Numbered from the stretch's first letter, positions 7,593 to 37,341 are shown. The stretch is DNA of 64,000 nt from an uncultured Bacilli bacterium (GCA_944332475.1 CALVKA010000003.1:163257-227256), one strand, 5' to 3'. Notes: generated by a model from the letters alone, not told the origin. Program-made: numbers and translations.

Positions 7593-8279
7593 TTATCTTC
7601 CAAGTATATCCCAGGCTGTAAGAATACCTATAACTTTTTCTTCTTTACCATTTTCTGTAACTAAAACACATGATAACTTACTTCCTTTTTTAAATTCATT
7701 AATAAATTCTAAACAAATATCATCATACAATCTATTTCTACTTGCAAATTTTATGATTTCTTTTGATTTGTTAAAACTTATAAAGTCTTTAATGTCCTTA
7801 AACAATGTATTTTCATCTATTTCTACAATTTTATTTTCATATAAATAATTAAATAATACCCCTTCACTAAAAATTCCTACTAATTTATTGTTGTCATAAA
7901 TTGGAATGTGAGTATAATTATTTTCCATCATCTTTTTCATTTTTTCTCTAACATTATCATTTAAATTAGCAGCATAAACGTTTTTGGTTGACTTATCATA
8001 AACTTTAAATGGATGCTTTATTTCTTCGATAATTCCATCTAATTTTTTTATCATATCTTCTCCATAAAAAATGAATTCATTTTCATAACTATTATGTGCT
8101 ATCCTATTTCTACACACTCTGCAAAAATCAATAAAGTCATATTGTGAGTAATAAGGTTCTCTATGTTTATTTTTTAATTCTTTAATCTTTTCTATTAATT
8201 TTTCATCCTTGTTTTCTTCATTTATTGTAAGTTTTTCAAATTCTAAAAATTTTCTTCTAAAAATTTCTGTGTTTTCCAT
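7593..8279 (-). CDS. HEPN-like (Rx4H) N-terminal domain fused to a tandem CBS-domain pair
   Basis: CRNRIAHN (R-x4-H) in the N-terminal ~110 aa. C-terminal ~120 aa has two CBS-like repeats (HIPIYDNNKLVGIFSEGVL... and SCVLVTENGKEEKVIGILTAWDIL). Lies 28 nt upstream of hsdM, same strand. Confidence 0.45.
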   Translation of the reverse strand: MENTEIFRRKFLEFEKLTINEENKDEKLIEKIKELKNKHREPYYSQYDFIDFCRVCRNRIAHNSYENEFIFYGEDMIKKLDGIIEEIKHPFKVYDKSTKNVYAANLNDNVREKMKKMMENNYTHIPIYDNNKLVGIFSEGVLFNYLYENKIVEIDENTLFKDIKDFISFNKSKEIIKFASRNRLYDDICLEFINEFKKGSKLSCVLVTENGKEEKVIGILTAWDILGR

Positions 8280-8308
8280 CGTTATTATTAACTCCGTTTC
8301 ATATAGTA

Positions 8309-9139
8309 TTAAAATAATTCTTTCACAATTAAATCTTCTGAATGTAAATTATTATTTTTACCTAATAACAAATTCTCATAAAATTTAATTAAATAAATTT
8401 TATCCTCTTTTATATTTAAGTAATTATTGAAATAATTACTTCTTACTAGTGCATTTCTAAAATATACTGATTTATCTTTAAATAATGAGTTATCTGCTTT
8501 GTATCCAAGGCTAGTTAAATATTTTTCTATGAATACTGCTGTTGTTCTAGTGTTACCTTCTCTAAAGGGATGTACTTGCCAGATATTAGATGTAAAATCA
8601 GTAATATTTTTAATGACTTCTACAATATTCATATTTTTGTAGTCTTTCTCTTTTTCTAGACTAATATCATATTCTAATGATTCTGTTAATGTTTTAGAAT
8701 CTCCATAAGCAACTGAATCATTATTTAATATTTTTTCATGTTTCGAAAAATCTATTTTTCTAAACTCTCCTGCAAATTCATAAACATCTTGAAATAAATA
8801 TTTATGAATATATTTTAGATAATCTACTGATAATTCAAAATTATCTTGATTTAATAATTCAACAATTCTCATAGATACAAAATCACATTCTAATTCATTA
8901 TGATTAATATTCTTTTCTTTTGTGGTGTAATATTCTTTTAGACTTTGTTCTACTTCTTTTAGTGTTAATTCACCTAAGATATTTTTTTCTTTTAGTTGTT
9001 CTAAGTATTTAGATGGTTTTAAATTATCTACTTGTTGTAATCCTATAGCCATATCCCATTGTAACTGTTTTACATATCCTTTGGGATATGTTTTTTCTTG
9101 ATATGGATTTAGGCTGGAATCTAGTTCTTTTTCGCTCAT
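8309..9139 (-). CDS. Fic/Doc family protein (degenerate Fic motif HPFREGNTRTT)
   Basis: Fic core motif HxFx(D/E)GN(G/T)R present as HPFREGNTR; 276 aa. Confidence 0.75.
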   Translation of the reverse strand: MSEKELDSSLNPYQEKTYPKGYVKQLQWDMAIGLQQVDNLKPSKYLEQLKEKNILGELTLKEVEQSLKEYYTTKEKNINHNELECDFVSMRIVELLNQDNFELSVDYLKYIHKYLFQDVYEFAGEFRKIDFSKHEKILNNDSVAYGDSKTLTESLEYDISLEKEKDYKNMNIVEVIKNITDFTSNIWQVHPFREGNTRTTAVFIEKYLTSLGYKADNSLFKDKSVYFRNALVRSNYFNNYLNIKEDKIYLIKFYENLLLGKNNNLHSEDLIVKELF

Positions 9140-10092: not shown

Positions 10093-10169
10093 TGGGGCGT
10101 CGTATGAGGATCGAACTCATGCATACTGGTGCCACAAACCAGCGTGTTAACCACTTCACCAACGGCGCC
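10093..10169 (-). tRNA. tRNA-His (anticodon GTG) with encoded G-1 and 3' CCA
   Basis: Minus-strand read TGGCGCCGTTGGTGAAGTGGTTAACACGCTGGTTTGTGGCACCAGTATGCATGAGTTCGATCCTCATACGACGCCCCA. Anticodon stem CTGGT/ACCAG with loop TTGTGGC (GTG). T-loop TTCGATC. G-1:C73 pair diagnostic of tRNA-His. Confidence 0.85.
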
Positions 10170-16444: not shown

Positions 16445-16605
16445 AAAAATATGTGGTGATATATATATTGTTGTAATGTTGATTTTACTTTTTGCTATAT
16501 ATCTAACGAAGCACTTATCTCCGCAGTAGCATCCGCCGAATCTTTCGATCACTACTGTCCTCGTCAACTCTAGGAGTCCAGGCGCTTAAATGAAAACTTC
16601 TCCTT
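16445..16605 (-). ncRNA. glmS ribozyme (GlcN6P-responsive self-cleaving riboswitch) in the glmS 5' leader
   Basis: Minus-strand AAGCGCCUGGACUCCUAGAGUUGACGAGGACAGUAGUGAUCGAAAGAUUCGGCGGAUGCUACUGCGGAG carries the conserved AGCGCC cleavage-site, GACGAGGA, AUCGAA and UCGGCGGAUGC blocks of the glmS ribozyme core, directly upstream of glmS. Confidence 0.8.
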
Positions 16606-31271: not shown

Positions 31272-32186
31272 TTAGTTATGTAATCTTCTATATGCTAAAG
31301 TTGTTCCAGCAAGACCAATTACAGCTAAAGATACGAATAATAAGATTCCATCACTGGTTTCAGGATTTTCAGTTGTATCTTCTACTTTGTCTTGTTCTGT
31401 TGGTGGAGTAGTTGGCTCTTCTGTTGGTTCTTCTGGATTTTCTGGTGTGATTGGTACTACAATAACATCATCATTTTCTTCTGGAATTTGTGTTTCATCT
31501 GTATAGAACTTTAATTGACCTTCACTTATTACATAAGCAGCTCCTGCGAAAGTATCTTCTGTTGCTTCAAAATCAGCATTTCCACTTTCTATCTCTTCTA
31601 ATGTAAGACCATCAGTCCATACTGTAGGAGTTGTTGCTGTTTCTGTAGTATTTGTGATTGTAGCTTCTCCTGCATGTACATAAGGTAATGAGGTAACTCC
31701 AGAACCTTTAGTCATTTCGATTCCTCCGAAACCATTTCCAGAAACATCAATATTTCCAATCAATGTTACTGTTGCTCCATTGACACCAAGTCCTACATTA
31801 CCACCTGTTAATGTAATATTTTTTAATGTTACATTTGATGTATATGCTTGGATAACATATACTCCTCCGTTGTATGGAGCTTCTGCATTACTTCCCCATA
31901 CTGTGTTATCTGTAGATCCGTCTTTAAACGTTCCAACATACTCGATTGTATATCCGTTACCATCAATTACTTTATCAGAGGTAACATTGATTTTGTGAGT
32001 AGTTTGAATGTTATCCATTAATTTTACAGATGTTGCTTCTGTTCCTTCTAATGCTGCATATAATTCATCAGCAGTTCTTACTTCTACCACACCATCTGCT
32101 GCATGAACGTTTACCATTGGAACCAATACAAATAACCCAACAATAGCCATTAAGGCAACTTTCATGAATTTTTTCATTACTTTCAT
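31272..32186 (-). CDS. cell-wall-anchored surface protein (beta-helix-like) with NPETSDG-type sorting signal
   Basis: N-terminal signal peptide; Gly/Val/Thr-rich beta-helix-like repeats. C-terminus ...TENPETSDGILLFVSLAVIGLAGTTLAYRRLHN (motif, hydrophobic segment, basic tail). Confidence 0.6.
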   Translation of the reverse strand: MKVMKKFMKVALMAIVGLFVLVPMVNVHAADGVVEVRTADELYAALEGTEATSVKLMDNIQTTHKINVTSDKVIDGNGYTIEYVGTFKDGSTDNTVWGSNAEAPYNGGVYVIQAYTSNVTLKNITLTGGNVGLGVNGATVTLIGNIDVSGNGFGGIEMTKGSGVTSLPYVHAGEATITNTTETATTPTVWTDGLTLEEIESGNADFEATEDTFAGAAYVISEGQLKFYTDETQIPEENDDVIVVPITPENPEEPTEEPTTPPTEQDKVEDTTENPETSDGILLFVSLAVIGLAGTTLAYRRLHN

Positions 32187-32294
32187 CCTTTCTTTATTAT
32201 TCCGATAGGCTCACCTATCTTTATATTCAGTATATCATAAAAATTCGTTTTTTTCACAAAAAATACACATTTTATTTTATTGTCTTTTTACTCA

Positions 32295-33311
32295 TTATCT
32301 GACTTCTTTCTTGATTAACTTAGCGTGCATGACGATTCTGTTGCCAAAATTGTCTTTACATGTTGACAGTGTTAACACTTTATCTCCTGTGTTTACCGTA
32401 CCAGAAAAGTCTACTTCACTTCTTCCTTTTATGGTATTTAAAAAGTTTTGGTAACTTTCTGTACTTGAAAAACTAGGTGTAATATAGTAGCTTTCTTTTT
32501 CTATTGTATACACACTAAATACTTGCCACATTGTATTTTCTGTTGGGGTGGATAGTCTTATAATATGATTTTCTTTATTGGTATACCAAGAACTATTTAA
32601 GATGTTTTTTAAACTTCCAAACATGGTTCCATTATAACGACTATGTGCATAGATAATTGTATTTTGATTAAAGTCTACGGGATTATTTCTATAATCCATA
32701 AAGACCCAACCTGCTTTGTTTTCTGTTTTGTCAAAGGCGTGATCTAAATAGTAATCATTATCTGTTGTTTGTACAATTGGATAATTAATATTCGTTCCCT
32801 TTACTTGAATCCAGCCTACAGTATCAGAATTTTTTTCTAATAAATCATTAAAGTCTACTTCTAGAAGATTCATTTTAATATAATTCCAGTAATCATCATC
32901 CATATTTTCTGGAGGATTAATATTTTCTGTATTCTCATTATCTTCTTTTTCATTTACATTGGTATCGTCTACTACGTCATTTTGTAAATTCTTAATATCA
33001 TTATTATCATGTAGCCAGATATATATTCCAATACTAGAACCTATTAAAATTAGTAAAAAGAATATAAAAAACAAAAAAACAACCCATTTACGAAATCTTC
33101 GTTTTTTCTTTTTTACTTGTTTTACCAATCTTTTATCTTCATAGAAATCGTTGGCTGATTCCATATTATCTATTTCATCAAATTTTTTTTGTCCTTTATT
33201 TTTTTCTTTCCAGATTTCCTTCTTTTGTTCTGGTTCTTTTTTTGTCCCTGTTTTATTTTCTTCTACTTTCTTTTTTCTGTATTCTTCTCGAGTTGGTAAT
33301 TTGTCACTCAT
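32295..33311 (-). CDS. sortase (class B-like transpeptidase)
   Basis: TLxTC catalytic motif as LTLSTC; conserved His (YAHSRYNG); N-terminal TM with Lys-rich cytoplasmic tail. Confidence 0.75.
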   Translation of the reverse strand: MSDKLPTREEYRKKKVEENKTGTKKEPEQKKEIWKEKNKGQKKFDEIDNMESANDFYEDKRLVKQVKKKKRRFRKWVVFLFFIFFLLILIGSSIGIYIWLHDNNDIKNLQNDVVDDTNVNEKEDNENTENINPPENMDDDYWNYIKMNLLEVDFNDLLEKNSDTVGWIQVKGTNINYPIVQTTDNDYYLDHAFDKTENKAGWVFMDYRNNPVDFNQNTIIYAHSRYNGTMFGSLKNILNSSWYTNKENHIIRLSTPTENTMWQVFSVYTIEKESYYITPSFSSTESYQNFLNTIKGRSEVDFSGTVNTGDKVLTLSTCKDNFGNRIVMHAKLIKKEVR

Positions 33312-33384
33312 AGTATCACCTATTTTTATTATATATCAAAAATAAGAAGAACAAAAGAACAGATTCTTTTATTCAAATAAAAAG

Positions 33385-33412
33385 TGGAGTCTTATGGCTC
33401 CTTCAAAGAGAA
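33385..33412 (-). terminator. intrinsic terminator downstream of the flavodoxin-like gene
   Basis: Minus strand GGAGCC-ATAA-GACTCC hairpin followed by ACTTTTTATTT; near-copy of the 36176 hairpin. Confidence 0.45.
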
Positions 33413-33539
33413 ATATAGATTATCTTTTTCTTTTCGATGAGTGTTTGTCACCATAAAAATCTTCATACCTTAATACAAAGCCAGAAATAATATCATCATA
33501 CTTTTAAGGATTATTTGTGTTATTTTTTCTAACTTTGTA

Positions 33540-34079
33540 TTAATTTTTATTTTCTATTTCATTAACTATCTTATCTAAACTAGAGAAATTTATAAAATTC
33601 ACTTTTTTATTATAAGTTTCTATCATTGCATTATTTTCTGCTGTTTGTTGTTCTTTAGGAATCTTCTTAATCGCATTATAAAGTAGCTTTAACATTGTTT
33701 TATGAACCAAGTTCAACTTTGAATAATCAATACCACCTCTTAAATGAAATATCATTGCTTTTTCAAACACTTCTTTTGGAAGTTGATGTTTAATATTATT
33801 TCTTATATTATTTTTATTTTCTTCATCTATTGGATCTGCAAGGCCAACTGTTGCTATCATGATCTTTTTATTAGATATGTTATTTAATTTCTTTAGGGTT
33901 TTAGACATTCCTAATACTCCACCTGCATACAATCCACCTAAATAAATAATGTTATCATAATCATTTATTTGATTTACTTTTTCAAAAGATATGGCTTTTA
34001 TGTTTGTTCTTCTGGAAAGCTCTTCGGCATATTGCTTGGTTGTCCCATAATGAGAGCCATATATTATAATATTACTCAT
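33540..34079 (-). CDS. flavodoxin-like protein
   Basis: IIIYGSHYGTTKQYAEEL flavodoxin-type N-terminus. Confidence 0.55.
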   Translation of the reverse strand: MSNIIIYGSHYGTTKQYAEELSRRTNIKAISFEKVNQINDYDNIIYLGGLYAGGVLGMSKTLKKLNNISNKKIMIATVGLADPIDEENKNNIRNNIKHQLPKEVFEKAMIFHLRGGIDYSKLNLVHKTMLKLLYNAIKKIPKEQQTAENNAMIETYNKKVNFINFSSLDKIVNEIENKN

Positions 34080-34094
34080 AATACCTCCCGTATT

Positions 34095-34250
34095 TCATTT
34101 TTTAAATACTAAAATAGCTTTTGCTGTTCCAGTGATTGACATAGTAATTAAATTATAGCCATTTTGTAACATTTCATTGGCTTTTTCTTCAATTTTTTGG
34201 GCCATATCGTCTGCTTTTGGTGAATATTCAATTACAATCGTTTTATACAC
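34095..34250 (-). CDS. small ORF (51 aa, GTG start) with strong RBS
   Basis: GGAGG then GTG at 34248-34250; encodes VYKTIVIEYSPKADDMAQKIEEKANEMLQNGYNLITMSITGTAKAILVFKK. Below the ORF-track size cut-off. Confidence 0.3.
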   Translation of the reverse strand: MYKTIVIEYSPKADDMAQKIEEKANEMLQNGYNLITMSITGTAKAILVFKK

Positions 34251-34415
34251 TCTTATACCTCCTTATTTTATATCCATTACCTTTTATCTATATTACTTCT
34301 GTTATATGGGTCTATAAATTTATTATTTTGTTTCCTTTTAACTTCTATTTAGTTCATTATATCATAATCTATATATTCAGTTTTGCCATATTATTAACTA
34401 TAATCGTCTCGATAC

Positions 34416-35072
34416 TTATTTTTGTTCTAAAAAAAATTCTAGTTTTGATGATACTTTTTCATATTCAGCATCTACTCTTACATAATATACCCCTTTTTCT
34501 TGAATATAGGGGGTAATATCCTTTATTAGTTTCCCATCATACATTTCTTTTTCTGGCTTTCCATTTCGTCTTATATATAAATTGGTGTAAATAGTATCCT
34601 TATTTTTTACTTCGTGAAAATTATCTAAAGCTTGGCACCCCACTTGTCGCTCTTTATTTTTGGAAAGGCAACTATATGATTCCACGTTAAGAATATACTC
34701 TGATTCTTCAGGATTAATATAATATACAGCATCATAATCTATACCATAATAGGTGTTTAAATGGTAGGAATTCCAGTATAAAAAATATGGAATTATAAAC
34801 GTTCGATGGTGATCAATAACTTGAACGGTAATAGGTGTTTTATTTATTGTTACTTTATAAAGTCTATTTCTTGAATAACTGAAGGGACTATTTATTTCAA
34901 TAGTTCCTATAATAATCTTAAATAAGATCAGACATATTATCATAATAAATATATACCTTTTTTTGTGCTTTCTCATTTTCTTCGTTGTAGAATTATATTC
35001 ACCTAATATATTTTCTGCTTCTAACTTTGTATCTTTAATCATTTCCTCTTTACTATAATAGAACTTTTTCAT
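34416..35072 (-). CDS. hypothetical membrane protein
   Basis: One TM helix (YIFIMIICLILFKIIIGTI), Tyr/Asn-rich ectodomain. Confidence 0.45.
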   Translation of the reverse strand: MKKFYYSKEEMIKDTKLEAENILGEYNSTTKKMRKHKKRYIFIMIICLILFKIIIGTIEINSPFSYSRNRLYKVTINKTPITVQVIDHHRTFIIPYFLYWNSYHLNTYYGIDYDAVYYINPEESEYILNVESYSCLSKNKERQVGCQALDNFHEVKNKDTIYTNLYIRRNGKPEKEMYDGKLIKDITPYIQEKGVYYVRVDAEYEKVSSKLEFFLEQK

Positions 35073-35186
35073 TTTATCTCACCATATATAAACTCTTTTA
35101 TTATTTAGTTCATTATATCATTAAATAAAAAATAAAAATAGTAGATTATAATGAACTAGTCAAGTAAAAGTAGACAGTTAAAAAAG

Positions 35187-35753
35187 TTAGAACCCTGATT
35201 CAATTTTATATTGAATTGGGGTTTTATAATTTAATGCATATGATGGTCTTTCATTATTGTAATAATAAATGTATTCTTCAATAAGTTTAGGTACATCTTT
35301 ACTATTTTTTAAATCAAAATCAACAATTAATTCTTCTTTAATCCAACCATTTAATGATTCATTGACCGGATTATCAGTTGGTGTACCAGCTCGACTCATT
35401 GAACGAGATATGTTATAATTTTCTAGAAGCTTATTATAGGCTTTTGATGAATAAACTGAGCCTTGATTTGTGTGAAGAATAATCAAATCATCAGTTTGTT
35501 CTTTTTTTATGCGTTTTAATACTTGTTTTAATCCATCGTGATATGAATTAATAGAACCTTTTTTAGTTGTTAATCCATATCCCACTATTTCTTTCTTCCA
35601 TAATTCAAAATGATTAATATTAAAATCCTTTAATTTTATATTATCAAAATACTGTAAATACTTAACTCTATCTCTATAAGTTTTTATTGTACTTTCTCTA
35701 ACTTTATCACTTTGATAATCATAAAAAGATAAATATAAATCTTTAAAAGTCAT
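35187..35753 (-). pseudogene. chimeric remnant: tyrosine-integrase N-terminal SAM-like fragment fused in frame to an IS3-family OrfB (rve/DDE) C-terminal fragment
   Basis: N-terminal 85 aa TFKDLYLSFYDYQSDKVRESTIKTYRDRVKY...LKDFNINHFELW is a phage-integrase N-terminal domain. From ILHTNQGSVYSS...SMSRAGTPTDNPVNESLNGWIKEEL...YIYYYNNERPSYALNYKTPIQY it is an IS3 OrfB C-terminus. Neither is complete. Confidence 0.6.
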
Positions 35754-35807
35754 ATCTTTATGATTTATATTCTGATCGAGTGATAAGAGGAACTGCCCTT
35801 CAGCTTC

Positions 35808-36059
35808 TTGTGCTTCTTTCTTAATAAATTATGGTGTGCTAGTATTACTCTAGTAGCAAAATATTTAGTTCATACTAAAATTGATGAAACACTAAATACC
35901 TACTCTCATATGTATCAAAATAAACTCGAAGATATAGTTAAGCTCATAAATAAAAACAATAGTATTTTACTAGCTGAAAGAGAAAGAGAAAAAGAAAAAA
36001 ATACTATTGATAATGATAGTATAACTAATGATAAAGATGATATAGAAATATGTCTATAA
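35808..36059 (+). pseudogene. tyrosine recombinase/integrase C-terminal fragment (catalytic Tyr region), opposite strand to the N-terminal fragment
   Basis: YLVHTKIDETLNTYSHMYQN matches the integrase ...LGH..I.TTLDTYSH catalytic-Tyr motif; only 83 codons, TTG start. Confidence 0.55.
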
Positions 36060-36069
36060 ACGTAAAATA

Positions 36070-36103
36070 ATGGTAAGTTTAATCGCTTACCATTATTTTT
36101 TTT
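36070..36103 (+). terminator. intrinsic terminator after the integrase remnant
   Basis: ATGGTAAG-TTTAATCG-CTTACCAT followed by TATTTTTTTT. Confidence 0.5.
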
Positions 36104-36160
36104 ATGTATTTTAGCACCTAAACAGCACCTAAAATATTTTTAAAGGTTTAAAATCCTTAT

Positions 36161-36191
36161 AAAATAAACAAAAGTGGAGCCTTGCGGCTCC
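36161..36191 (-). terminator. intrinsic terminator of the GNAT-domain gene (GGAGCC/GGCTCC stem)
   Basis: Minus strand GGAGCC-GCAA-GGCTCC followed by ACTTTTGTTTATTTT. Confidence 0.5.
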
Positions 36192-36333
36192 TTCAGGGGG
36201 TTCGGTTGAATATACTCTCACATTTAAACACCGTGAGAGATATCGGCGTGATATGTATCACGCATCTTAATCATAAAGTATATTTTATAAAAAGTCAATT
36301 GCTATTTCTAAAATATTTTGGTGCTTGACAGTT

Positions 36334-37341
36334 CTATTTTTGAGGCACTTTTATTTCATATTGATATGACAATATTTCTAGACCGAGAGATGCAAAAAAA
36401 CTTTTGGCTGATGGTGTAAAGCTATATACCTCCACTTCTATTCTATCGCATTTTTCTTCTTTGGCCTTTTTTACTACTTCTTCGTATAATTTAGTTCCAA
36501 TTTTTTGCCTTCGATATTCTTTTTTTACAAATATTTTTTTAATTCTCATGATACGAGTATCTTTATATTTCGCCTCTTTTTTAGATGTTTCTAGTTGAGC
36601 TTCAATAAACCCTAAAATGTTATGATCTTCTTCGTAGATTAAAAGTGTTCCTAATTGATAGGGATTACATAGTGTATTAAATTCACTTTTGTTATAGACT
36701 ACTTTGCCATCATAAATATCTGGTCTTCCTTTTCGGAATATCACTTCAAATTCTTTTGACATATGTACAAACGGAGAATATTCTTTTTCATTCGGATGAC
36801 GAATGATCCATGATTTTATTTTTTCTTTTTGACTCCATATTAAAAATGGTACTGTGTCATTTTCTTTTATTCCTATTATCATTAATAGGGTTTCTTTTAA
36901 TTCCTTCGTTAACTCTTTTATTTTTTCTTCCAATTGGATTCTATCTTCTATATAGACATAAATATATTTTTTCTCTTCTAATGTTGATTGTCGTATTAAT
37001 TGATTTTTTAATTCTTCTAAATTTTCATAATGTCCTAATCCTGTTGGTAAGAAAGAATATGCTTTAATTTCATTTTGTTTATTTAATTTTTCTATTATGG
37101 TTTGTTGTTTAGTATTCATTTCTTGTCTATTACATAAGATTTTTTTTGTTTGGAAATTAGAAAACATGTTTTCTTTTTCTAAAATTTCATTTGTTAGGCC
37201 TTCTACTCCTATTGCAATTACCGTATTATAAGTTTCCTCTAGTTCTGGTATTACATTTTGATATTTTTTTGTGTTGGAAAGATATAATTTTTCAGATAAT
37301 GCTTCTAGTACATTTTCTATTGTTTTGATTTTATCTTTCAC
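36334..37341 (-). CDS. two-domain protein with C-terminal GNAT acetyltransferase domain
   Basis: C-terminal RRQKIGTKLYEEVVKKAKEEKCDRIEVEV (CoA-binding-like); N-terminal domain unknown. Confidence 0.5.
   Translation of the reverse strand: MKDKIKTIENVLEALSEKLYLSNTKKYQNVIPELEETYNTVIAIGVEGLTNEILEKENMFSNFQTKKILCNRQEMNTKQQTIIEKLNKQNEIKAYSFLPTGLGHYENLEELKNQLIRQSTLEEKKYIYVYIEDRIQLEEKIKELTKELKETLLMIIGIKENDTVPFLIWSQKEKIKSWIIRHPNEKEYSPFVHMSKEFEVIFRKGRPDIYDGKVVYNKSEFNTLCNPYQLGTLLIYEEDHNILGFIEAQLETSKKEAKYKDTRIMRIKKIFVKKEYRRQKIGTKLYEEVVKKAKEEKCDRIEVEVYSFTPSAKSFFASLGLEILSYQYEIKVPQK

Follow-up and report, generated by a model that had tools for sequence, protein, structure and literature searches.

The DNA analysed here, a stretch of 64,000 nucleotides (nt) from an uncultured Bacilli bacterium (GCA_944332475.1, CALVKA010000003.1:163257-227256; hereafter the window), carries between a sortase gene and a GNAT acetyltransferase gene a region of gene remnants and small genes (33380 to 36200) that is read, with a probability of roughly 0.65, as a composite island, now decayed, that integrated at the 3' end of a small-RNA gene of the chromosome. 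An earlier note, made from the sequence alone, had proposed that an element inserted there into a terminator region, duplicated it as attachment (att)-like repeats and brought the enclosed genes as cargo. The plain "terminator region" of that note was too general, as its right hairpin closes a conserved small-RNA gene at its 3' end and is not a generic terminator, and it is for this reason that the site is a target. The mechanism is standard biology of integrative mobilizable elements (IMEs) and cis-mobilizable elements (CIMEs), and the debris is routine genome decay; what appears to be new is that the target is a small RNA without annotation, conserved among uncultured Bacilli of the gut, and that its terminator is exchanged by the occupants of the site.

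The island is bracketed by two copies of a 26-nt repeat, AAAAGTGGAGtCTTatGGCTCCTTCA at 33380-33405 and AAAAGTGGAGcCTTgcGGCTCCTTCA at 36170-36195 (33381 and 36168 in the earlier note, which had recognised both hairpins), identical at 23 of 26 positions and differing at three. The 26-mer AAAAGTGGAG.CTT..GGCTCCTTCA gave exactly two matches in the window at up to 3 mismatches, the number expected from 100 dinucleotide-preserving shuffles being 0, and the likeness of the copies fades outside about 43 nt. Both hairpins have the form of minus-strand terminators, with a GGAGCC-loop-GGCTCC stem followed by a T-run; the right one passed a terminator scan, whereas the left one failed because of a C.A mismatch in its stem. 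The distal copy (33380-33405, minus strand; TGAAGGAGCCATAAGACTCCACTTTT), an orphan and degenerate small-RNA terminator, lies 69 nt upstream of the start of the class B sortase gene (33311) and is identical in four other assemblies of the window's species. The proximal copy (36162-36200, minus strand; CCCCC TGAA GGAGCCGCAAGGCTCC ACTTTTGTTTATTT), which includes the 26-nt repeat at 36170-36195, is the working terminator of the small RNA.

An unoccupied site joining both flanks, for which the earlier note had advised searching related genomes, is present in L050, a related species and not the same one. There, the sortase start is followed by 150 nt, a hairpin (GGAGCCTTGCGGCTCC) identical to the window's right copy, the small RNA, the GNAT gene and RecG, with the flavodoxin, 51-aa and membrane genes of the window missing; RecG, sortase and GNAT are 96%, 78% and 49% identical to those of the window. 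The functional small-RNA terminator of L050 thereby holds the very place, upstream of the sortase, that the distal copy occupies in the window. A sister island was found in L066, of the same species group as L050, where the small RNA is followed by att1, a homolog of the window's membrane protein (74%), a 292-aa gene, a 5' integrase remnant, arm repeats (TTTTAGGTGCTATTTAGGTGCT), att2 and ABC transporter genes. Its att1 and att2 are perfect 34-nt repeats running from CCCCC through the T-run (CCCCCTGAAGGAGCCGAAAGGCTCCACTTTTTTT) and delimit an island of 2.9 kb, and the genes found after att2 stand directly after the small RNA in L055. Direct repeats of the target's 3' end are thus found at both island borders, at 23/26 in the window and 34/34 in L066. 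A vestige of arm sequence follows att1 in L066 (GTTTTAAAAGGTTTAAAATG). The L066 integrase remnant lies at 8010-8350, at the island's distal end and in the sense orientation of the small RNA, and a 16-nt piece at 8587-8606 (TATAAAATAAACAAAA) matches the att flank of the window in inverted form; neither of these two features fits the simple models.

The 165 nt separating the GNAT stop codon (36334) from the right hairpin were found to be a small-RNA gene (36166-36298, minus strand) and not a 3' untranslated region. The best sigma-70 match of the region (36298-36270, minus strand), with TTGACT at 36298-36293, a 17-nt spacer and TATGAT at 36275-36270, is predicted to start a transcript of about 98 nt near 36263, which would fold into two hairpins, the first at the 5' end, followed by 17 unpaired nt (AACCGAACCCCCUGAA) and the terminator. 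Fold z-scores were -4.4 to -5.0 for the window RNA and -4.4 to -6.2 across four variants. With 22 distinct sequences, 94.5% of cells were paired in the proposed structure, compared with 27-64% when partners were slid, and compensatory changes were seen in 5 of 5 terminator pairs and in two pairs of the 5' hairpin. The covariation score of 0.246 (at most 0.126 in slid controls) came mostly from the terminator and the 5' hairpin, hairpin 2 varying only in the diverged homologs L023 and L071, which have different hairpin sequences and the same fold. With its own promoter, an intrinsic terminator and a structure kept through compensatory change, the ~98-nt RNA is a conserved, previously undescribed small-RNA gene of predicted expression. 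No small-RNA match was obtained at the Rfam gathering threshold, the best sub-threshold hits in a search at E ≤ 10 being eukaryotic snoRNAs (E ≥ 0.2), and the pattern of the RNA body was absent from IMG/VR.

When metagenomes were scanned with 27 nt of the RNA body, 41 loci were obtained, from samples of human gut and of animals; in these, the RNA lies downstream of recG (72-96% identity) wherever a locus reaches far enough upstream, often with a GNAT gene between them. A scan of genome contigs with the GNAT protein returned one locus, L014, a metagenome-assembled genome (MAG) of another uncultured Bacilli species (GNAT 61% identical), and no complete genome of the window's own species for comparison; the promoter and RNA body of L014 are essentially identical to those of the window, despite which its terminator stem has an entirely different sequence. 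A small protein encoded within the RNA (MRDTYHADISHGV) was considered and rejected, since the frame is not conserved across variants and has no ribosome-binding site. The possibility that the RNA belongs to the mobile element and not to the host was likewise rejected, since synteny of the RNA with recG holds whether or not a locus contains an element, and since the terminator between RNA body and integrase varies while the body stays identical. The GNAT gene of the window (36334-37341, minus strand) encodes an N-terminal extension of about 220 aa; when present, the gene is always located between recG and the small RNA, and it evolves fast, at 49-61% identity where RecG is at 91-96%.

At least 20 of the 41 loci have a tyrosine integrase gene no more than about 150 nt from the terminator, encoded on the opposite strand and directed at the terminator, which is the position and orientation of the C-terminal integrase remnant in the window and of the intact gene in L014. 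The terminator is followed by a TTTATAAGG-like motif and then by a locus-specific pair or triplet of short direct repeats, such as CTAGATACC, AGGTACCC or AACGACATT. Paired short direct repeats beside an att core are the usual appearance of arm-type integrase-binding sites, and the window has such a putative pair of its own, two direct AGCACCTAAA repeats at 36113-36133 (plus strand), read from the sequence, with a 25/26-identical counterpart beside att2 of L066, a similar pair in L071, and analogous but different pairs in other loci. In L050, L055, L056, L061, L065 and L066, which have identical upstream sequence and presumably represent one species, the terminator stem differs by occupant; elements can therefore bring their own replacement 3' end. 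Comparison of the loci shows that CCCCCTGAA with the terminator stem-loop and T-run (~26-35 bp) serves as an attachment site of a family of tyrosine integrases, the fuller candidate attB being a segment of about 40 bp (AACCGAACCCCCTGAA, hairpin and T-run), and that integration rebuilds the 3' end of the RNA beside the integrase, a further copy of the core being left at the element's far end. Within the available stretches of the 41 loci, no second copy of a locus's own terminator or RNA body was seen downstream, and the lengths of the att repeats therefore rest on the window and L066. Taken with the empty site of L050 and the repeats of L066, the occupied loci support the insertion at the terminator with att-like duplication that the earlier note had proposed, here placed at 33406-36169, and L050 and L066 likewise support its assignment of the enclosed genes as island cargo.

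Occupants with enough sequence were found to be IMEs, with an integrase, a Mob_Pre (MobV) relaxase, an AAA_25/DnaB-like (Rep-like) ATPase and a helix-turn-helix (HTH) regulator. L035 (237-14090) has Phage_integrase, Mob_Pre, AAA_25 and HTH domains and a cargo cluster of ABC-F-like, AAA_33/zeta-like, APH and GNAT genes, possibly for antibiotic resistance; a second integrase and AAA_25 gene stand in tandem, so that accretion at the site is directly seen. L040 (270-10323) has the same four domains, with ResIII and N6_N4 DNA methylase genes as cargo. The hairpin pattern was also found in two viral contigs of IMG/VR (L023, 2281-4649; L024, 3663-6932), both times in the same att context. In these contigs the core adjoins Fic/DOC, Shedu (SduA_C) and type I restriction-modification specificity genes, and both have the look of defence islands occupying this hot spot; the core copy of L024 lacks the RNA body and is flanked on either side by arm repeats, and is thus read as an internal or attP-like site.

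The cargo genes and the debris next to them were separable when strains were compared. Most assemblies with an identical GNAT or sortase protein share the arrangement of the window, and two other arrangements were seen. In L011 and L004, which carry the same island genes without the debris, the membrane gene is followed by TAGTAGATTGTAA, a 141-nt spacer, the hairpin and the small RNA, with neither integrase nor insertion sequence (IS); the window is collinear with L011 up to 35151, and the right end of the IS begins at 35152. L003 has a diverged allele of the membrane gene (~80% aa identity, by eye) about 60 nt from the hairpin and keeps the flanking hairpins, again with no integrase or IS. 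The integrase and IS debris (35152-36169) is accordingly strain-specific and may derive from a later, decayed element, and its treatment in the earlier note as one unit with the cargo did not hold, as L011/L004 and L003 stand next to the same hairpin without it. That note had named related strains with the same cargo, no integrase or IS remnants and unrelated flanking hairpins as evidence that would speak against its reading; such cargo without remnants is indeed what L011 and L004 have, whereas unrelated hairpins were not found.

The N-terminal integrase remnant (35596-35822, minus strand) consists of the end of the arm-binding domain followed by MTFKDL...HFELW. It is 91% identical to the L066 remnant over 227 nt, 88% identical to P0138 ("Arm DNA-binding domain-containing protein") and 53-66% identical to intact integrases at the site. 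Its reading frame runs upstream of the called ATG to 35822, adding 23 codons (KKEAQEAEGQFLLSLDQNINHKD) that are assigned to the arm-binding domain by P0138; these and aa ~1-51, with a Phage_int_SAM_3 match (E 5.5e-5; 23.8 bits, cut-off 22.6), are all that survives of the N-terminus. The C-terminal remnant (35806-36059, plus strand) extends from box II (SCASFLINYG) to the catalytic tyrosine (LNTYSH) and stop codon, so that the integrase C-terminus recognised by the earlier note is real, with coding starting at 35806 upstream of the called open reading frame (ORF) at 35808. This ORF (35808-36059) had no Pfam hit, but the remnant matched an integrase that is intact and occupies this site in a related genome (50% over 32 aa, E 7e-10, including LNTYSH) and is 63-82% identical to integrases at the site in other loci. 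It starts at SCASFLINYG as do P0143 and P0144, and contains a 2-nt insertion at about 35836-35837 relative to L071. A complete R...HxxR...Y catalytic domain in one frame is not present, HDFRH being replaced (PSA) and the frame shifted at about 35836, and the integrase is, as judged from its sequence, a pseudogene. It is followed by its terminator hairpin (36064-36099, plus strand), identified by the terminator scan, with a 15-bp stem and a T-run and an equivalent after the L071 integrase. No intact integrase and no other integrase or IS copy was found in the window, and the island ORFs had no Mob or Rep domain in Pfam; since an IME requires a functional integrase and a relaxase or oriT, which a CIME by definition lacks, the island is best described as CIME-like debris and not as an IME. 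Nearly all close homologs of either integrase fragment are themselves fragments of 66-200 aa. Free-standing ORFs of 66-68 aa (P0148-P0156, P0150), 92-94% identical to the C-terminal remnant, are spread over many contigs (up to 11, of which the longest has 575 kb), and decayed copies of this integrase lineage seem to be much commoner than intact ones.

The in-frame fusion of an integrase N-terminus to an IS3-family OrfB reported by the earlier note was confirmed by Pfam and NCBIfam matches, with the junction at 35596-35601 and not at about 35500. The chimeric ORF (35187-35753, minus strand; 188 aa) joins integrase aa 1-51 to about 137 aa of the OrfB C-terminus, with Phage_int_SAM_3 at aa 2-45 (E 5.5e-5), rve at 69-125, rve_3 at 115-179, rve_2 also detected, and an NCBIfam IS3 transposase match at aa 52-183; a protein of the same sequence is publicly listed as "putative transposase" (P0001). 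When aligned with intact OrfB proteins of 269 aa, the chimera has its junction at W52, the window following its integrase parent (L066) to ...CATTTTGAATTATGGAA and its OrfB parent (L015) from ATGGAA.AAAGAAATAGTGGG. The parents thus overlap by the 6 nt ATGGAA, and an in-frame fusion had a 1 in 3 chance of arising. The IS fragment (35152-35601, minus strand) comprises OrfB codons ~129-269, as defined by OrfB alignment and NCBIfam, and the right inverted repeat (...CTGTCTACTTTTACTTGACTAGTTCA), whose terminus at 35152 is the exact end ...GACTAGTTCA defined by aligning seven intact copies. Intact copies are of about 1.33 kb, encode OrfA (119 aa) and OrfB (269 aa), belong to the IS3 family and are multi-copy in related genomes; several contigs of the window's species break inside the fragment. 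The fragment resembles the IS3 family in its OrfB C-terminus, 94% identical to an intact relative, and in its authentic right terminus ...TTCA, and an intact relative, P0040, passes the NCBIfam IS3 cut-off. It differs in that only the 3' ~450 nt are left, fused to integrase codons: OrfA and the left end (of the two 5'-TG...CA-3' terminal inverted repeats of such elements) are absent from the window, and the rve-type DDE core begins beyond the first Asp, with Asn in the position of the second (HTNQG, where six relatives have HTDQG). Nothing in 35152-36169 looks functional: the integrase has lost its catalytic core and suffered a frameshift, and of the first two DDE Asp residues of OrfB one is missing and the other replaced by Asn.

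The two integrase pieces lie back to back and overlap by 17 nt (TCTTGTGCTTCTTTCTT, 35806-35822), which encode SCASFL on the plus strand and KKEAQE on the minus strand, as established from the sequence, the end point of L066 homology and the intact C-terminal relatives P0143/P0144. The earlier note had ascribed this arrangement to inversion and deletion; the rearranged halves are real, but inversion is not the unique solution, since the overlap would plausibly fit either an inversion within one integrase gene or, just as well, a deletion joining two divergent integrase genes. A perfect 17-nt intragenic inverted repeat (AAGAAAGAAGCACAAGA / TCTTGTGCTTCTTTCTT) was not seen in the relatives tested, L062 having four mismatches per arm and L071 three differences in the SCASFL codons, and because the relatives carry only an imperfect repeat the inversion mechanism is unproven. 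If two divergent integrase genes had instead been joined by deletion between 17-nt direct repeats, no inversion would be needed: on the plus strand, the KKEAQE codons of the minus-strand integrase and the SCASFL codons of the plus-strand integrase are the same 17-mer, so that a simple deletion suffices, and the integrase 5' part of L066 is in small-RNA sense orientation without a breakpoint at KKEAQE. Such a two-gene deletion is nevertheless considered somewhat improbable, as all of the 20-odd intact integrases at the site, tandem pairs included, are in one orientation, and as both fragments match the same relatives to similar degrees (N-terminal 59% and C-terminal 77% for L049/L054; 66% and 63% for L045).

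The composite reading can be set out as a series of steps. An element with the membrane, 51-aa and flavodoxin-like genes would have entered the chromosome between RNA body and sortase gene, displacing the old terminator to 33380-33405, where it would since have acquired three mismatches in 26 nt. Loss of the integrase would then have left an att-flanked, CIME-like island, the state of L011/L004 and L003. In the lineage of the window, a second, integrase-bearing element would have docked at the RNA-proximal core by accretion, bringing the arm-type repeats at 36113-36133, the integrase and the integrase terminator, and an IS3-family IS, with its right end at 35152, would have inserted just upstream of the membrane-gene promoter. 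A microhomology rearrangement at the 17-nt KKEAQE/SCASFL overlap could next have put the 5' part of the integrase on the opposite strand, and a second rearrangement at ATGGAA would have deleted everything from integrase codon 52 to about OrfB codon 129, removing an internal att site and the rest of the element, creating the 188-aa ORF in frame and leaving about 1 kb of debris. Integration, decay to a CIME and accretion at the gene-proximal att site are the published norm for such tandems (PMC5704250).

Several observations weigh against this history. The empty site comes from a different species and not from a strain of the window's own, and the species of L050 also has other neighbours at the site (the ABC transporter genes of L055 and L066), so that the polarity of insertion is deduced and not observed. 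The CCCCC of the right copy is gone from the left one (now CTCTT), beside which no arm-type repeats were detectable, and a search for an intact integrase that closely matches both fragments was negative. Membrane-protein homologs at greater distance (55%, 44%) occur in ordinary chromosomal contexts. The L066 integrase remnant lies on the far side of the membrane gene, in small-RNA sense orientation, and continues upstream of KKEAQE, which a simple intragenic inversion does not explain. Finally, the integrase may have come with a second element or been the island's own. A single element with a single history, whose integrase remnants came with the cargo and of which L011/L004 and L003 would be further deletion derivatives, must accordingly be weighed. 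The integrases of intact elements stand exactly where the C-terminal remnant of the window stands, beside the RNA-proximal core, and the L066 island combines the membrane-gene homolog with an integrase remnant 91% identical to that of the window, near-identical arm repeats and the arm vestige after att1. The 141-nt spacer between core and membrane promoter in L011/L004, however, has no counterpart in the window, the integrase remnants of L066 and the window (91% nt) are far more conserved than the membrane gene (74% aa), and tandem accretion was directly seen in L035; a one-element origin is therefore regarded as unlikely. It is very improbable that no site-specific insertion took place at all, the block being ancestral, the hairpins ordinary terminators alike through local duplication or convergence, and L050 a deletion of the block. 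Both hairpins do lie where minus-strand genes need terminators, and the membrane gene adjoins the small RNA in several lineages, but the 23/26 match is found nowhere else in the window, the motif occurs in viral contigs only in att context, the 34-nt perfect repeats of L066 include the non-hairpin CCCCCTGAA, and the site is demonstrably an integrase target, so that a deletion between the repeats would itself amount to excision via att copies.

Tandems of IMEs and CIMEs, such as ICESt1/CIME of Streptococcus thermophilus and the streptococcal IMEs at tRNA-Lys, rpsI and rpmG, share with the present site a tyrosine integrase beside the rebuilt 3' end of the target, flanking direct repeats, a MobV (Mob_Pre) relaxase without conjugation pore genes, and decay to att-flanked, integrase-less islands followed by tandem docking (PMC5704250). 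They differ from it in their targets, which are tRNA or protein genes and not the terminator of an unannotated small RNA; the hosts here are uncultured low-GC gut Bacilli, and mobility is predicted. Elements that target tRNA genes likewise bring a replacement 3' end of the target. In enterobacteria, small-RNA loci are known as sites of prophages and islands (Salmonella ryeB/SdsR and E. coli ryeE; PMC3603311). The present site has in common with these a hairpin small-RNA gene as a recurrent hot spot with varied occupants, and differs in phylum, RNA and element type (IMEs as opposed to lambdoid or P4-like prophages) and in that the terminator stem itself is swapped.

It is tentatively suggested, at slightly less than even odds, that the recG-linked RNA represents a new and widespread family of trans-acting small RNAs of gut Bacilli whose 3' end is rewritten by each incoming mobilizable element. 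As a lead only, the RNA resembles the C-rich trans-acting small RNAs of Firmicutes (RsaE/RoxS type) in its length of about 100 nt, own promoter, stem-loops, unpaired CCCCC and intrinsic terminator, and the CCCCC stretch could pair with Shine-Dalgarno sequences. It differs from that type in having one C-run and not several, and no Rfam match, RsaE included, was obtained. If the suggestion is correct, elements with resistance-like or defence genes land on a host regulator and replace its terminator, perhaps changing its stability or level, and the hairpin at 33380 is a fossil of the RNA's earlier terminator. The RNA gene beside recG in any case identifies a hot spot of recombination in many uncultured Bacilli of the gut, where mobilizable elements stack, with ABC-F/APH/GNAT, restriction-modification, Fic and Shedu genes as cargo, and where metagenome assemblies tend to break. 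Its core of about 35 bp lets annotators delimit islands in MAGs, recognise CIME-like islands and separate strain-variable cargo from backbone, and the RNA is a new candidate for experimental study.

The cargo of the window comprises three minus-strand genes. A flavodoxin-like protein of 179 aa (33540-34079; Pfam Flavodoxin_5, E 1.8e-22), absent from the empty site of L050, is accompanied by a 51-aa ORF (34095-34250) that is called in all assemblies of the species and had no Pfam or NCBIfam hit. The third gene (34416-35072) encodes a predicted membrane protein of 218 aa without a family match, which has 16 homologous clusters among 5.8 billion proteins; near one of its distant homologs, in an otherwise ordinary chromosomal context, L068/L069 carry an IS605-family OrfB/TnpB (Cas12f-like) gene at 215-1345. 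The G+C content of island and debris is 25-26%, compared with 30-31% in the flanks, a difference that also speaks for an insertion. An exact 20-nt repeat (TATTTAGTTCATTATATCAT) occurs at 34346-34365 and 35102-35121, once upstream of the 51-aa/flavodoxin genes and once upstream of the membrane gene; read on the minus strand as ATGATATAATGAACTAAATA, it contains an extended -10 motif (TGnTATAAT) and is probably a duplicated promoter, and a similar motif faces the opposite way at 35140-35158. Beyond the distal repeat, the sortase locus (31272-33311, minus strand) encodes the class B sortase (TIGR03064) and, after it, a protein of 304 aa that has a signal peptide, an adhesive domain of pectate-lyase-like type and, at its C-terminus, a hydrophobic anchor; this protein is a probable sortase substrate, and the two genes may form a small surface-protein operon. 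The only Rfam or ARAGORN hits in the window were a glmS ribozyme (16448-16597, minus strand; 76.5 bits) and tRNA-His (10093-10168, minus strand).

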